DNA from: an uncultured Clostridia bacterium
GTDB taxonomy: Bacteria; Bacillota; Clostridia; Peptostreptococcales; Anaerovoracaceae
NCBI GenBank assembly: GCA_945828095.1
Contig: CALZOZ010000001.1
Location: 4,652 to 68,651, forward strand
Direction of reading: 5' to 3'
DNA length: 64,000 nucleotides
The notes beneath the pieces are model-generated. The model saw nothing but the letters and a program-made list of their open reading frames with translations, did no database searches and was not told the DNA's origin. This document shows positions 35,880-44,944 of the stretch, piece after piece (the first letter of the stretch is position 1; every line of letters begins with the position of its first letter). The translations under genes were made by a program, and so were the position numbers.

Positions 35880-35900
35880 TTAGAACTTTTATCCATAAAA

Positions 35901-35972
35901 ACGACCACTTAGAACAAAAAACGACCACTCAGAACATTGCGCTTGTAATCAGGCGCAATTTGTGTTTATACT
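35901..35972 (+). promoter_or_regulatory. direct-repeat box (ACGACCACTYAGAACA x2, 20-bp period) plus TATACT
   Basis: Repeats at 35901..35916 and 35921..35936; TATACT at 35967..35972, 30 nt after repeat 2. Lies immediately upstream of the LytTR regulator gene. Confidence 0.55.
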
Positions 35973-35977
35973 AAGGT

Positions 35978-36682
35978 ATGAAGATTTATATTTGTGATGA
36001 CATGATTGAAATAGTGGAAGCCGTAAAGGCAGAATGTGAGCATTACCTCCAGGCTAAAAATATGGAAGCCGAGGTAGCGGGTGATGTGTTCTTTCCTGAC
36101 GAGCTTGAGGAAGAGGACAAGCGGCCTGATATACTGCTCCTTGATATTGACATGCCAACAAGCAGCGGCATAGAGATAAAAGACCGCATGGAAAAGTATG
36201 AGGACGGACCGTTTATAATATTCATCACCAGCCATGACGAGATGGTTTACGAGGCTTTCGGTAAGAATGTCATAGGCTTCCTTAGAAAACCTGTGGACAG
36301 GGTGCTCTTTGAAAAGGTCATGGACAAGGCGGTGGATTTTTACGAGAGCCGTTTTCTCAGCGTGCAGCTTCCGGGAGGGATTGAGCTGATGTGCCGCGAT
36401 ATTATAGGAATCAAGTCGGAGCATGTGTACAGCACCATAGTGCTGGCTGACGGTGAGCTGAGTATAAGGCGAAGCCTCAAGGAATGGGAGACGCTGCTTC
36501 CGGAGAAGGACTTTCTCAGGATCAATGAGAAGTGGATAATCCACTATGCTTATGTGGATAAGATAAAAGACGATAAGGTAACGCTTAAGAACGGAGAAAG
36601 GCTGGCGGTGAGCCGCAGAAGGAAGCTGCAGCTTCGGGACGGCTACATATCGTATTGTTTGCGAAAGGGAAGGTATAGATGA
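35978..36682 (+). CDS. LytTR-family response regulator
   Basis: MKIYICDD...ILLLDIDMP receiver domain; LytTR C-terminus (FLRINEKWIIHYAYVDKI). Confidence 0.9.
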   Translation: MKIYICDDMIEIVEAVKAECEHYLQAKNMEAEVAGDVFFPDELEEEDKRPDILLLDIDMPTSSGIEIKDRMEKYEDGPFIIFITSHDEMVYEAFGKNVIGFLRKPVDRVLFEKVMDKAVDFYESRFLSVQLPGGIELMCRDIIGIKSEHVYSTIVLADGELSIRRSLKEWETLLPEKDFLRINEKWIIHYAYVDKIKDDKVTLKNGERLAVSRRRKLQLRDGYISYCLRKGRYR

Positions 36683-37959
36683 CGGTTTTAATGGGTGTTT
36701 TAGCAAGGTGTCTGTACGCTATAGGGGATATTGCTTTGTACAGAGGGGTGCTTGGATATGAGTTTAGTGAGTCTGCGCTGCGAAAAGTGTTCGGAGGCTT
36801 GTTTCTGGCGGGCTTCGCAGGAGCTATGGCGGTGCTGCCGGGGGCTGAGTACATAGAGTGGGTAATGTACGGGATGCTGTGGCTGGGTATGATGCTGATT
36901 TTTAAAAAACTACAGTTTGGGCTGGTAGTTTTTGTTTTTTTTGCAAGGCTGACAATAACAAATTTAGTTGATGGAATATCCATTATTATTTTCGCGGATA
37001 ATGACTTGGGGGAATTTTTAGCATGGAAGAGCATGGAGGTTTACTGTGTTCTTGTGCAGCTAGGTTTTTTGTTTTTGCTAGCAATTCTATGTTGCAAAAA
37101 AAGAAAATGGTCATGGCAGGAAAGTGTAAAGAAAACAAAAGGGTGGAAGTTTATAATTGGAGCGACATTTATGATGATGCCGACTATTTTGTCATGGGCG
37201 TGGGCGCTCCTTTCAAACCCATTTAACGTACAGAATTATATTTTTATGGAAAGCAACCTGCTCAGCATGGCAATAGTTGCTCTGGTTATAAGTGTTTTTG
37301 TATTAATGGATAAACATGATAAGATGGTTGAGCAGCTTGCGCTAAATGACCGCTGCATCAGGGAGCAGACGGAGCAGTACCGCATACTAAACGAGAAGCA
37401 AAAAGAGCTTAGGGCTTTCAGACATGATATTAAAGGACATATTTTGGCTATGAGAAGGATGGCGGCACAGGGAAGTTCTCAGGAACTGGCAGCTTATCTG
37501 GAGAAGTGGGCAGGACTGCAGGAAGAGACCTTTTACATATCCAGCAATAATATAATCGGAGATGCCATCTTTAATTTTTACTATGATAAGGGATGCAAAG
37601 AAGGAATCGAAGTCAAGGTGATGGGCAAGTTCCTGCAGGATATGGATGTGGCGGAAACCGACCTGTGCATAGTCCTGACCAATACGGTATCCAACGCCTA
37701 TGAAGCCGCCCTAAAATGTGGCAAGGGGAGCATTGTCACCGTAGAGTTGAGTCAGTTCTGTGGCAAGGCGATGATTGTAATAACCAATCCTGTAAAGGAA
37801 GAACCTAAAATACAAGGTGGCATTATGTCTACCACTAAAGCTGATAAAGAGCTTCATGGTCTCGGTATCTCAAACACTATGAAAGCACTGGAGAAATACG
37901 ATGGACAGATAACATGGGAGAAAAAAAGAGATGAAATCGTTACAAAAATAGTAATATAA
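36679..37959 (+). CDS. HPK10-type (AgrC/ComD-like) GHKL sensor histidine kinase
   Basis: Multi-TM N-terminus; H-box LRAFRHDIKGHILAM; N-box LTNTVSNAYEAA; G-box HGLGISN. ATGA overlap with the regulator gene. Confidence 0.85.
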   Translation: MTVLMGVLARCLYAIGDIALYRGVLGYEFSESALRKVFGGLFLAGFAGAMAVLPGAEYIEWVMYGMLWLGMMLIFKKLQFGLVVFVFFARLTITNLVDGISIIIFADNDLGEFLAWKSMEVYCVLVQLGFLFLLAILCCKKRKWSWQESVKKTKGWKFIIGATFMMMPTILSWAWALLSNPFNVQNYIFMESNLLSMAIVALVISVFVLMDKHDKMVEQLALNDRCIREQTEQYRILNEKQKELRAFRHDIKGHILAMRRMAAQGSSQELAAYLEKWAGLQEETFYISSNNIIGDAIFNFYYDKGCKEGIEVKVMGKFLQDMDVAETDLCIVLTNTVSNAYEAALKCGKGSIVTVELSQFCGKAMIVITNPVKEEPKIQGGIMSTTKADKELHGLGISNTMKALEKYDGQITWEKKRDEIVTKIVI

Positions 37960-37968
37960 CCCATAAAA

Positions 37969-38040
37969 ACGACCATTCAGAACAAAAAACGACCACTCAG
38001 AACATTGTTATTGCAATTATACTTAAAATAATGCTATGAT
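37969..38040 (+). promoter_or_regulatory. second copy of the direct-repeat box plus candidate -10
   Basis: Repeats at 37969..37984 and 37989..38004. TATGAT at 38035..38040 keeps the 30-nt spacing; an alternative TATACT lies at 38018..38023. Confidence 0.55.
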
Positions 38041-43079: not shown

Positions 43080-43646
43080 ACGACAAATAATGCAATGCAC
43101 ATAATATGGTTTCTTGTAGCTGTGGTATGGACTATAAAACTTATAAAAGACTGGCCTGTAGAAACCCATGGTATAAAGGTGTACGTATTAGGTCTAATCT
43201 TGATTTCTTTTGGGATATGCGACTTTGTAGGCTTTATTCTGGAAAAGAGCGGCATGAAAGCAAATAAAATGCGTAAGTGCAGAGGTATAACTTTTGTGTT
43301 AGCCTGTGCCGCCTTTATAGCATCTATCTCTTATGTCCTTGTCAATTCACCGGACAGGTACATTGAACATATGAATGAAAAATGGCAGATATACCTGCCG
43401 GACGGTTTCAGGATCGTTGAAAAGATGGATACAAAGGACGAGAATACAGATATCAAATATAAAGTGCTGGAGTATAAAAACAAACCGTTTTTTGATGAGA
43501 CACTGGATTTCGGCGAGACGGGTTTTGATGAAAAGATGTGTTACATAAAAAATGGGAGAGATGAGCTTTGGTTTTTTTATAACGAAAATAAGCGACAGCT
43601 GTATACGGTTGAGATGATATCGGGAGGAGATAATCCCGGAGTTTGA
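43068..43646 (+). CDS. membrane protein with soluble C-terminal domain, hypothetical
   Basis: Three to four N-terminal TM helices, then a roughly 90-aa hydrophilic domain. Confidence 0.55.
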   Translation: MMKKTTNNAMHIIWFLVAVVWTIKLIKDWPVETHGIKVYVLGLILISFGICDFVGFILEKSGMKANKMRKCRGITFVLACAAFIASISYVLVNSPDRYIEHMNEKWQIYLPDGFRIVEKMDTKDENTDIKYKVLEYKNKPFFDETLDFGETGFDEKMCYIKNGRDELWFFYNENKRQLYTVEMISGGDNPGV

Positions 43647-43666
43647 GAAAAGTAATGGTGGAAAAT

Positions 43667-44824
43667 ATGAAAAACAAAAAAATAAATATAAGTTTAATTT
43701 TTATTTTAATATTCTCTTTTTTTGTTTTTTCCACATGTGGATTTTCTGATACGGGTAAAACGGAGAGGGATGCAGGTTTTAATATCCGCACAGGACAGAT
43801 TAAAACAGTATCTGACTTGAAAGCAATTAAAAATGTTGCCATTGCGGAGATCAATGAATTCACTCTAGCGGCTGCCAATTCAAGCGATGTAAGAGAGGCT
43901 TTAGATGACGGAACAACATTAGTTGTAAATAATATATCTGACGAGGGGGTTGAGAAACTCTCCGAAGATTTAAACCTGGTTTTTTATCCCAAAGAAAAAA
44001 ACTCAATGCAAACTACATATGGAGCAGTAATAAGAAAAGAGTTGTCGGGGGAATATAGCATTTCTGAGGTAATAGCAGAAGTTGCCAAAAGAGAATTCCT
44101 TGGGAGAGTGATAGAGCCCTCTGAACAGGATGTAAAAAGAACTCTTGCATGGATTGCAGAAAATAGTAAGATTGATTTAACTGATATGTATTATACTCTT
44201 GAGACGGAAGATTGCAGAAGATCTGAAATCGTCAAAAATGCCGGCACAGCCGGACTTGGTTCTGCATCTATGTTGGGTTCGGATTTTTATCACGACAGAA
44301 TGATTTTGTCACTGTACACATCAGCAACCGAGGAGGACTTCACCTCTTATGATGTACCATCATACCGTTTGGCGGGGATAGATGTTTTGCTGATAGGGTT
44401 AAAGTTAAAAACAGTTGGAACGACAACATATAATGCTTTTGCGGCAGATTTTATTGTTGGAGGTGATTCCTCCAATGGATGTAAAATAGTAAAATATCAT
44501 GGCAAACTGGGAACACCTTCTTCTTCCAGATATTCTGTATTTGGAGAAATGCTGCAGTCTGATTCAAATCAGACAATAAACCATTTGAATGACAATCAAT
44601 ATTCAAAATGGTGGGAAGTAACGCCTAACAACCCGGCTGCGGGTGGATCATATAGGATATCTCCAAATCTTCTCGTTGAGCTAAAAGATGGTACTACAAC
44701 TAAAGGAACAATAAAAGCAACCTTTTCGTATATAAAGGTTAATAACGGGTTGGCGTCCAATTGGGTATCAGACGTAGATAAAGTTTTATCTTTTTCTTAT
44801 AAAAACCATGCAAAGGTAAGTTAA
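43667..44824 (+). CDS. lipoprotein, hypothetical
   Basis: MKNKKINISLIFILIFSFFVFSTCG lipobox. The upstream TTG at 43643 is less likely. Confidence 0.6.
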   Translation: MKNKKINISLIFILIFSFFVFSTCGFSDTGKTERDAGFNIRTGQIKTVSDLKAIKNVAIAEINEFTLAAANSSDVREALDDGTTLVVNNISDEGVEKLSEDLNLVFYPKEKNSMQTTYGAVIRKELSGEYSISEVIAEVAKREFLGRVIEPSEQDVKRTLAWIAENSKIDLTDMYYTLETEDCRRSEIVKNAGTAGLGSASMLGSDFYHDRMILSLYTSATEEDFTSYDVPSYRLAGIDVLLIGLKLKTVGTTTYNAFAADFIVGGDSSNGCKIVKYHGKLGTPSSSRYSVFGEMLQSDSNQTINHLNDNQYSKWWEVTPNNPAAGGSYRISPNLLVELKDGTTTKGTIKATFSYIKVNNGLASNWVSDVDKVLSFSYKNHAKVS

Positions 44825-44844
44825 AAGCAGGAGTATGGCTATGA

Positions 44845-44881
44845 GGGGTCTTGCCTTTTCCAAGACCCCAAAAAAATTTTT
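44845..44881 (+). terminator. hairpin at the right end of the island
   Basis: GGGGTCTTG-CCTTTTC-CAAGACCCC followed by A7 then T5. The atypical tail lowers confidence. Confidence 0.4.
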
Positions 44882-44944
44882 GAGCTGTGGCATGGACCAT
44901 ATCAGCATAGTCAAGAATAAATAATGCCGAGGAAGTTTTATCAC

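Follow-up and report, generated by a model that had tools for sequence, protein, structure and literature searches.

A LytTR regulator and AgrC/ComD-type kinase beside a polymorphic array of exported and small membrane proteins in an uncultured Clostridia bacterium

Which genes does a quorum-sensing-type regulator control when it stands in front of a row of exported proteins, lipoproteins and small membrane proteins, and what might these proteins do outside the cell? This question is raised by a 64-kb stretch of DNA from an uncultured Clostridia bacterium of the Anaerovoracaceae (assembly GCA_945828095.1, contig CALZOZ010000001.1; the whole stretch is hereafter called the window), in which a response regulator (RR) with a LytTR domain and an AgrC/ComD-type histidine kinase (HK) are followed by ten co-directional reading frames. 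A first-pass annotation, made from the letters alone, had described this island, and every frame that it named was found on the + strand, to which all coordinates given below refer. The island was compared with loci from other assemblies, which are labelled L001, L002 and so on. To judge from this comparison, the conserved heart of the locus is the RR-HK pair together with gene A, the first frame of the array, and not the whole ten-gene array, the other nine frames of which are exchangeable cassettes.

The regulator, the kinase and gene A

The RR (35978-36682, 234 aa) consists of a receiver domain and a LytTR DNA-binding domain (Response_reg PF00072, E 2.3e-12; LytTR PF04397, E 1.3e-14) and is 94-100% identical among the haplotypes of this species. 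The HK (36679-37959, 426 aa), the start of which overlaps the stop of the RR gene by 4 nt, is a polytopic, HPK10-like kinase with five to seven hydrophobic helices in residues 1-210, the H-box FRHDIKGH and a HATPase_c_5 domain (PF14501, E 3.6e-16). Among 28 species-representative loci with unrelated flanks, a LytTR regulator and a HATPase_c_5 kinase are located directly 5' of gene A in 16.

Two 15-nt direct repeats, ACGACCACTTAGAAC and ACGACCACTCAGAAC, separated by 5 nt, are located upstream of the RR gene (35901-35935) and form a putative LytTR site of the RR/HK operon; they are followed by -35/-10-like hexamers, TTGTAA/TATACT, at 35943-35972. A second pair, consisting of ACGACCATTCAGAAC, 5 nt and ACGACCACTCAGAAC, is found at 37969-38003, where it may serve as the LytTR site of the promoter of gene A, and is likewise followed by TTGCAA/TATGAT at 38011-38040. 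The duplication of the promoter element that the first-pass annotation had noticed was thus confirmed, as the segments 35878-35949 and 37946-38017 are 83% identical. The core of the repeats, ACGACCAYTYAGAAC, occurs exactly four times in the 64 kb, in two pairs with a 20-nt period (35901/35921 and 37969/37989), and no further copy is present elsewhere in the window. Between the boxes and the start codon of the RR gene, at 35936-35959, an inverted repeat of 10 bp, ATTGCGCTTG...CAGGCGCAAT, overlaps the -35-like hexamer; it is not found in the otherwise similar promoter of gene A.

When the repeat was defined as at least 11 of 12 matches at a period of 19-22 nt, it was detected 5' of gene A in 15 of the 18 loci in which A is linked to the two-component system (TCS), as against one of 14 loci with a stand-alone A gene and 3.8% of background windows. 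The distance from the repeat to the start of A in the linked loci was 79-155 nt, with the exception of L028 (299 nt). The box sequence varies from locus to locus, for example ACGACCACTCAGAAC, CACTTACATCA, TTGACCAAATATTTC and GACCGTTCGTCGCA, and the repeat that was also detected 5' of the locus's own RR gene, in 11 of the 18 linked loci, is usually identical to the repeat upstream of A in the same locus. The same layout upstream of the RR gene was found in L009, L012, L022, L030, L031, L038, L039, L043 and L048. This co-variation of the box sequence between the RR and A promoters within a locus is the strongest evidence that the boxes are sites of the regulator, that the regulator controls its own operon, and that A is its conserved direct target. 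Control of A by the adjacent LytTR regulator is therefore strongly supported by the comparison of promoters.

The first-pass annotation had placed the entire array under this regulator. For the promoter of A this held, with boxes that co-vary across loci; it did not hold directly for the other nine frames, since A alone has boxes. Co-transcription of these nine frames with A would be expected from the lack of internal terminators and boxes and from a single hairpin at the array end. The hairpin (44846-44885), GC-rich, with the arms GGGGTCTTG...CAAGACCCC followed by runs of A and T, is the sole terminator-like element that was found at the end of the array; its folding energy is -16.4 kcal/mol with a z-score of just -1.4, and it is absent from the list of a consensus terminator scan. 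On the + strand inside coding sequence, the terminator scan returned just two short stem-loops, at 38592 (in A) and 44241 (in I).

In L025, from a metagenome-assembled Eubacterium genome, a pair of genes for an AbiEi antitoxin and an AbiEii nucleotidyltransferase toxin is inserted between the kinase gene and A (6158-7656 of that locus), and despite this insertion the boxes remain directly 5' of A. Some haplotypes carry additional genes 5' of the RR gene, encoding a secreted protein of 207 aa (a 157-aa open reading frame (ORF) in L067) and a lipoprotein of 155 aa (L007 67-1193, L048 6579-7705, L055 9351-9818, L067 315-1291). In L055 only the lipoprotein gene is present at this position; part of the first regulator box has been replaced in L007 and L048.

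Gene A (38098-38913) encodes a secreted protein of 271 aa with a signal peptide ending ...AFA/AQ. Its family is characterized by the motifs WKDYGNRYFTAK...LENHY...ITDxSARTxGxSDVNMY...KQIKVKHSW, with twelve invariant positions within them. At least 100 homologues were found, down to 26% identity, all of which are annotated as hypothetical and none of which contains a Pfam domain. Their hosts are Anaerovoracaceae (Ihubacter, Emergencia, Mogibacterium and "Eubacterium"), some Lachnospiraceae and others. A HMMER profile search enlarged the family to about 260 clusters at 50% identity, with single-domain, full-length members of about 230-300 aa, and no extra length that would suggest a fused domain was seen in the full search. 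The AlphaFold2 model of A (pLDDT 81.8, pTM 0.78) predicts a signal peptide and three helices followed by about 11 long beta strands; the comparison of this fold with PDB and BFVD by Foldseek gave just GFP-like or random matches with TM-scores of 0.1-0.2. An origin of A from phages or plasmids was considered and rejected: PHROGs gave only noise, and no A homologue was detected by tblastn in 50,697 phage and 72,556 plasmid records.

Gene A occurs in two genomic modes. Stand-alone A genes have no boxes, and in 11 of 14 such loci they are followed within 40 nt by an ORF for a hydrophobic peptide of 30-62 aa, often with a lysine-rich tail, for example MIYIGKWQLISLLIIIGCLILICIAVVTVIRSRKKK. Such a tiny hydrophobic follower was found behind only 18 of the 378 genes of at least 150 aa in the compared loci, and 13 of these 18 are A or A2 genes, A2 being the second A-family gene of some arrays; outside the A genes the rate is about 1.5%, as against 11 of 14 for stand-alone A. 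When A is linked to the TCS, it is followed by diverse exported proteins of 180-390 aa and, in most loci, by at least one small membrane protein next. In the arrays with two A-family genes, A and A2 stand in tandem or are separated by genes for a lipoprotein and a four-helix membrane protein (L022 7830-8621 and 10375-11103; L040 8001-9750; L025 7992-9659). The A2 proteins retain the N-terminal domain and a DYGNRY-like motif and diverge beyond. A shared N-terminal domain in A, B and I, which weak profile matches had suggested, was rejected, because these matches were due to the signal peptides and the profile of the mature N-terminal domain matched A and A2 only.

About 85 nt immediately 3' of A (38914-38990 in the window, 10811-10890 in L048) are conserved between haplotypes with unrelated cargo. 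Within this stretch, an ORF of three codons (ATG AGG GTG stop) stands behind a strong ribosome-binding site. The end of similarity just past this ORF seems to be the recombination junction at which cassettes are swapped.

Haplotypes, alleles and exchangeable cargo

In public assemblies at least five haplotypes of the island were found at one chromosomal site, between the hut-GntR-sortase-cmpB genes and the glyoxalase-Fic genes. The long form with the full array is that of the window and L001. The short form (L002) has the order A-B-C-I-H, and a sensor- and patch-swapped form (L055) has the short cargo of L002. The diverged form (L048) has different cargo, with IS110 and IS4 elements; in a third type (L060) the cargo is X4-H-I, and its A allele occurs on 146 contigs. 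Finally, a form without A (L067) has the order RR-HK-F-[A scar]-G-C'-I-H. At least 238 contigs contain the kinase allele of L067, and of the 24 long contigs that were read, 23 have the A-less form. A metagenome scan of the population returned only one close locus.

Identity between the window and L055 is 97-100% from the RR gene to beyond A, apart from two blocks with sharp boundaries. The first (36971-37353) covers HK residues 96-225, approximately, and is 39-53% identical between the two. The sensor types, of which at least three (S1-S3) were found in this species, share about 21% amino-acid identity, although their kinase domains are 94-96% and the accompanying RRs 99-100% identical. The second block (38654-38844) is a hypervariable patch in A at about residues 186-249, with 57-66% nucleotide identity between the window and L055, as against 97-99% in the rest of A; at least three types of patch allele (P1-P3) were distinguished. 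Synonymous divergence is saturated in both blocks (dS 2.4 for the sensor and 1.5 for the A patch, the latter with a dN/dS of 0.36), and dN/dS is below 1 in both. The sensor and patch blocks are old alleles that were moved by recombination.

The ten frames behind the second repeat pair are arranged in the order A, B, C, D, E, F, G, E', H and I. Gene B (39035-39982) encodes an orphan protein of 315 aa with a signal peptide, and its end is overlapped by 23 nt by the start of gene C (39960-40427), which encodes a bitopic membrane protein of 155 aa with an N-terminal anchor and an exposed domain of about 120 aa. Gene D (40556-40762; 68 aa) has two hydrophobic helices, and gene E (40982-41638; 218 aa) encodes a putative lipoprotein with the lipobox LCGC. 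It is followed by gene F (41751-42188; 145 aa, or 141 aa in other gene calls), with four hydrophobic helices, and by gene G (42308-42463), which encodes a hydrophobic peptide of 51 aa. Gene H (43068-43646; 192 aa) combines three hydrophobic helices with a soluble C-terminal domain of about 100 aa. The last frame, gene I, starts at 43643 or 43667, in the former case overlapping the stop of H, and ends at 44824; it encodes a putative lipoprotein of 393 or 385 aa, depending on the start codon, with the non-canonical lipobox FSTC (FSAC in the L038 homologue). The signal peptides and anchors of the cargo were seen in the sequences and by a hydropathy scan. The guanine-plus-cytosine (GC) content is 32-39% over 38-45 kb and about 45% in the flanks.

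The duplications and orphan gene ends that the first-pass annotation had reported were all found. E' (42488-43023) is an inactivated copy of the lipoprotein gene E, consisting of 10 N-terminal codons, a frameshift and an otherwise intact remainder in another frame; E and E' are 100% identical over 300 nt, and a 121-nt deletion in E' removes the lipobox region and shifts the frame. The A scar (42198-42295) is an orphan gene end that repeats the final 98 nt of gene A with 93% identity (85% over 33 aa when translated) and has lost the stop codon. Gene G begins 13 nt past this scar, which is the layout of a stand-alone A gene with its tiny follower, and for this reason G looks like a partner left behind by a second copy of A that was lost. 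The H scar (40442-40530) is an orphan gene end of 89 nt that corresponds to the 3' end of H (43560-43648, 78% identity), and marks the left edge of a 3.2-kb block that is absent from the short haplotype, as L002 and L005 join 40443 directly to 43659. With several haplotypes, swapped cargo and scars at a single site, the polymorphism is of the kind found in conflict loci, as had been proposed. An integrase and a pheromone-like small gene are, as also stated before, absent from the island according to its frames and the family scans.

The earlier remark that the cargo belongs to no recognisable family withstood sequence searches of Pfam, NCBIfam, PHROGs, PADLOC and PDB. Against Pfam, NCBIfam, PHROGs and PADLOC, nothing above noise was obtained for the cargo; A, B, E and I had no match among PDB sequences, and no PADLOC defence model matched the nine cargo proteins. 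Among 5.8 billion proteins gene B had two homologues only and gene I only four. The AlphaFold2 prediction for I failed (five-sequence alignment, pLDDT 40), and its model was not used. The possibility that the cargo proteins are distant paralogues of A or of each other was rejected, since hhalign linked only the A2 group to A, and the sole pair of paralogues within the cargo was E/E'.

Members of the cargo recur in other contexts. A second copy of C, 95-97% identical, is located later in the array in L001, L006 and L067, and a 92% identical copy of gene E is found in the otherwise different cargo of L048. Gene H follows I in L001, L002, L055 and L067 and precedes it in the window and L060. Relatives of I are present in the A-headed arrays of other genera, namely Emergencia (L038) and an uncultured Eubacteriales bacterium (L040); the L038 protein is 35% identical to the I allele of L060 and 32% to that of L055. 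The X1 family recurs in five loci, in two of them with the same two-helix partner of 64 aa, and a C39_2-like cysteine peptidase with a lipoprotein of 354-385 aa recurs in two loci. X4 (L060 and L012) has a glycine- and alanine-rich hydrophobic stretch. Some arrays contain exported peptidases (C39_2, S8 subtilase, M10-like metallopeptidase), and in L027 and L038 genes for an ABC ATPase and permease-like proteins are located behind that of a small secreted protein. The cargo region of L048 also contains IS110-family and DDE_Tnp_1 transposase genes (11589-12767 and 15999-17498 of that locus), which adjoin the gene of a secreted M10-like metallopeptidase with the motif HEVGHALSLDH.

The flanks, with histidine-utilisation genes upstream and the genes from the glyoxalase-family gene onwards downstream, are kept in every haplotype. 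On the upstream side, a 62-aa ORF (35691-35879) represents a truncated gene for an ABC_trans_CmpB membrane protein. The intact cmpB gene (182-188 aa) is present in L002, L005, L048 and L060; about 340 nt of this gene are missing from the window, in which 35775-35847 stands in place of L002 7338-7750. Insertion of the island into cmpB was rejected as an explanation, since the gene is shortened, in comparison with L002, by an internal deletion of these 340 nt or so, and in other strains the kinase pair is located 3' of an intact cmpB. Downstream of the array are a glyoxalase-family gene (45429-46235) and a Fic-domain gene (46808-48342), followed by three genes, of which one has no Pfam match, one an AIRC domain and one a Ni_insertion domain, and which we take to be lar-like (LarE/LarB/LarC).

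What the array may do

These observations may be accommodated by a quorum-sensing-type circuit that drives a polymorphic competition locus of exported and membrane proteins, a reading which we favour but hold tentatively. The kinase would sense an extracellular ligand that is encoded outside the island and would phosphorylate the LytTR regulator, which in turn would bind the paired 15-nt repeats and activate its own operon and the promoter of A; these steps are well supported, as is the view of A as the conserved first target, a beta-rich protein exported by Sec that would represent a new family and carry a hypervariable patch on its surface. The later steps are less firmly placed. Transcripts would extend from A across the other nine frames and end at the one hairpin, at 44.85 kb; A, B, E and I, as exported proteins or lipoproteins, might act outside the cell on rivals or their envelopes, and the interleaved small membrane proteins C, D, F, G and H might protect the producer. 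Cassettes would be gained, lost and shuffled between strains and genera, and strains that lose an exported protein would tend to keep its small membrane partner, as may be the case for G after the A scar and for the common haplotype without A; both G and the scar are kept in L067, the commonest haplotype. In the window the small membrane proteins alternate with exported ones, and in other loci they pair with A or X1. We favour the competition reading for several reasons: the population pattern, the orphan small genes, the coupling of A with a tiny peptide, the peptidase and ABC cassettes of related arrays, and the precedent of a Sec-dependent bacteriocin. The suggestion of the first-pass annotation that the island may represent a new inter-bacterial or envelope-remodelling system can therefore be kept in part: the cassette is real, recurrent and undescribed in the libraries and papers that were searched, and its antagonistic function is putative.

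A number of observations weigh against a competition locus. Profile scans revealed no toxin, bacteriocin, immunity or defence family among the cargo, and no structural match was found, Foldseek having been run on A. The commonest haplotype, that of L067, has lost A and its boxes and retains the kinase pair and I; A can thus be dispensed with, and some of the cargo may have a different function. The A patch has no co-varying gene in cis of the kind expected for cognate immunity: the window and L055 differ in the patch and share B, C, I and H. Mature A is acidic, with a family median pI of 4.9, in which it differs from most membrane-active bacteriocins. When A is linked to the TCS, no tiny peptide is encoded directly behind it. 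In addition, co-transcription of the array is a prediction.

A more specific form of the competition reading can be formulated, which in our estimate is rather doubtful. A-family proteins and their tiny single-pass membrane partners would constitute a new Sec-exported module for kin discrimination or antagonism in gut Clostridia, in which the patch sets the specificity for a target or a partner. In many lineages an HPK10/LytTR circuit with pherotype-like sensors would have taken over this module, and the signal of the circuit would be unlinked, or derived from a protein instead of a dedicated peptide gene. The trailing cassettes would be further pairs of effectors and protectors that are exchanged between genera.

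Among the alternatives, the one that survives best, though we consider it unlikely, is variation of surface or secreted antigens. A and the lipoproteins could be colonisation or surface proteins under pressure from host antibodies or from phages for which they serve as receptors, with the kinase pair timing their expression. The A patch alleles are what such pressure might leave, being old and recombining, with a dN/dS of less than 1 and without a partner in cis that varies with them, and it would suit an acidic, globular A and two putative lipoproteins in a gut species. Pfam and NCBIfam, however, revealed no anchoring, adhesin or repeat domains in the cargo, and antigen variation leaves unexplained why stand-alone A is paired with a tiny membrane peptide, why orphan small membrane genes are kept, and why sister arrays contain ABC and peptidase cassettes.

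The abundance of the haplotype without A, which keeps RR-HK and F, G, C', I and H, could instead be understood if the island served inducible protection of the envelope. The kinase would then sense a foreign antimicrobial peptide or the signal of a rival, and the array would be mainly an immunity or resistance island to which A is accessory. Small membrane proteins account for five of the ten frames, ABC transporters are found in related arrays, and a precedent is provided by pneumococcal non-producers in which the blp regulators and immunity genes are retained. In contrast, A is the single conserved, box-controlled target across genera, and several arrays carry secreted peptidases, and we regard protection as the chief function of the array as improbable.

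The absence of any gene for a peptide pheromone or its processing, together with the position of A as the only conserved extracytoplasmic gene beside the kinase pair and under the same boxes, raised the question of whether A belongs to the signalling circuit itself, as a protein-borne autoinducer, its precursor or an extracytoplasmic co-sensor. RR-HK-A would then be a three-component system in which A replaces the pheromone gene. In this species sensor and patch types pair one-to-one (S1/P1, S2/P2 twice, S3/P3), and 1.3 kb of 96-99% identical sequence separates the paired blocks, which suggested their co-adaptation. However, L009 and L064, from the sister species, have a 100% identical RR and sensor (HK 1-215) and different patch types that are only 49% identical, the commonest haplotype has an S1 kinase without A, and 12 of the 28 species-level A genes have no adjacent kinase pair or boxes. 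The patch as the determinant of a cognate ligand for the sensor is contradicted by L009 and L064 and by the A-less haplotype, so that this simple ligand model is not supported, being weakened rather than refuted; a signalling role of A appears very doubtful to us. The notion that most of the array is an AT-rich fragment from horizontal transfer, the hypothetical genes of which are in decay or were called wrongly and do not work together, could draw on the low GC content, the pseudogene E', the scars, the truncated flanking gene and the few homologues of B and I, and it is highly improbable in view of the invariant residues of A across genera and its confident fold, the recurrence of cargo families in other arrays, frames that are intact in many independent assemblies, and dN/dS well below 1.

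The gut Clostridia of the Anaerovoracaceae and Lachnospiraceae are abundant and poorly understood, and the ways in which they perceive and combat one another are very little known. The present analysis defines a compact unit that is open to experiment, in which a kinase pair and two promoters with predicted binding sites are combined with a conserved secreted protein of unmatched fold. It also provides a natural series of alleles, with three types each of sensor and patch, and haplotypes that have or lack A. Should the cargo prove antagonistic, the locus would add protein weapons and protectors of a class that depends on Sec and is under quorum control; should A take part in signalling, this would alter the view of HPK10 kinases as readers of small peptides only. 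In either case, context would be gained for about 260 protein clusters and several orphan families.

Comparison with known systems

The resemblance to peptide quorum sensing of the LytTR/HPK10 type extends to the LytTR regulator and the polytopic HATPase_c_5 kinase, to the paired repeats of about 20-21-nt period 5' of the own and the target operon, which are putative binding sites here, and to the three allelic sensor types within one species. Old allelic sensor types are known from agr, com and blp. With the pln, spp, cbn and pneumococcal blp systems the island shares the regulator and HPK10 polytopic kinase, autoregulation, paired repeats of about 20-nt period before the regulatory and cargo operons, allelic sensors within a species, and strain-variable cargo that mixes exported products with small membrane proteins and includes non-producer haplotypes. 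It differs from them in lacking a pheromone gene, leader peptides of the double-glycine type and an ABC/C39 exporter, and in its cargo of Sec- or lipoprotein-type proteins of 200-390 aa that belong to unmatched families, the conserved first target being a folded protein of 27 kDa rather than a peptide. A gene for a pheromone precursor (AgrD-like or with a double-glycine leader) was found neither in nor beside the island, and nothing is conserved 5' of the RR gene in the related loci; AgrB and a C39 ABC exporter were absent from the island in Pfam and NCBIfam scans and from the Pfam annotations of sister loci over about 8-10 kb on either side. Nor does the island encode class II bacteriocin prepeptides with their exporter, as its exported products, of 218-385 aa, have Sec or lipoprotein signals and no match to a bacteriocin family.

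In VirS/VirR of Clostridium perfringens, a LytTR regulator binds paired repeats 5' of genes for Sec-exported proteins, and the signal is encoded elsewhere. The island resembles this system in the repeats directly 5' of the gene for a Sec-exported protein and in a signal that is not encoded in the island. The genes of the VirR-box regulon, such as pfoA and netB, are dispersed in the genome and encode known pore-forming toxins and enzymes, whereas the targets in the island belong to unmatched families in one polymorphic array that is joined to the kinase pair. Exported or membrane proteins that are encoded beside a kinase pair and induced by it are also known from SaePQRS, CpxP/CpxA and MgrB/PhoQ. 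Unlike these, A is widespread without a kinase pair and missing from the commonest kinase-bearing haplotype, and its patch does not track the sensor.

Polymorphic toxin loci of the CDI, Rhs and LXG types are similar in their gene-end fragments followed by small genes, and in duplications, insertion sequence (IS) elements and the exchange of cassettes. What is left of A in the scar, however, is its conserved end and not a variable toxin tip; the A patch is internal, the C-terminus is conserved, and no cognate gene co-varies in cis. Scans with Pfam, NCBIfam and PADLOC found no trafficking domain, toxin domain or dedicated secretion system in the cargo.

A Sec-dependent protein bacteriocin is known in gut Clostridia, namely mediterrocin of Mediterraneibacter gnavus, which belongs to the lactococcin 972 family (PMC12345188). 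The likeness to it consists in a signal-peptide-dependent, beta-rich protein, membrane or ABC-type genes nearby, the immunity role of which is putative here, and a patchy distribution among strains (PMC12345188). A differs from lactococcin 972 in being three times larger and acidic, and there is no DUF1430 immunity protein at the island; the Pfam profile of lactococcin 972 matched neither the cargo of the window nor that of the sister arrays that were scanned.

No description of the A family or of the cassette was found in full-text searches of the literature. What is new at this locus is the A family, with its unmatched fold, and the variable cassette linked to the kinase, and the regulatory logic is already known: by analogy, it is that of the pln/blp-type and VirSR-type systems, which would here be joined to a different cargo.

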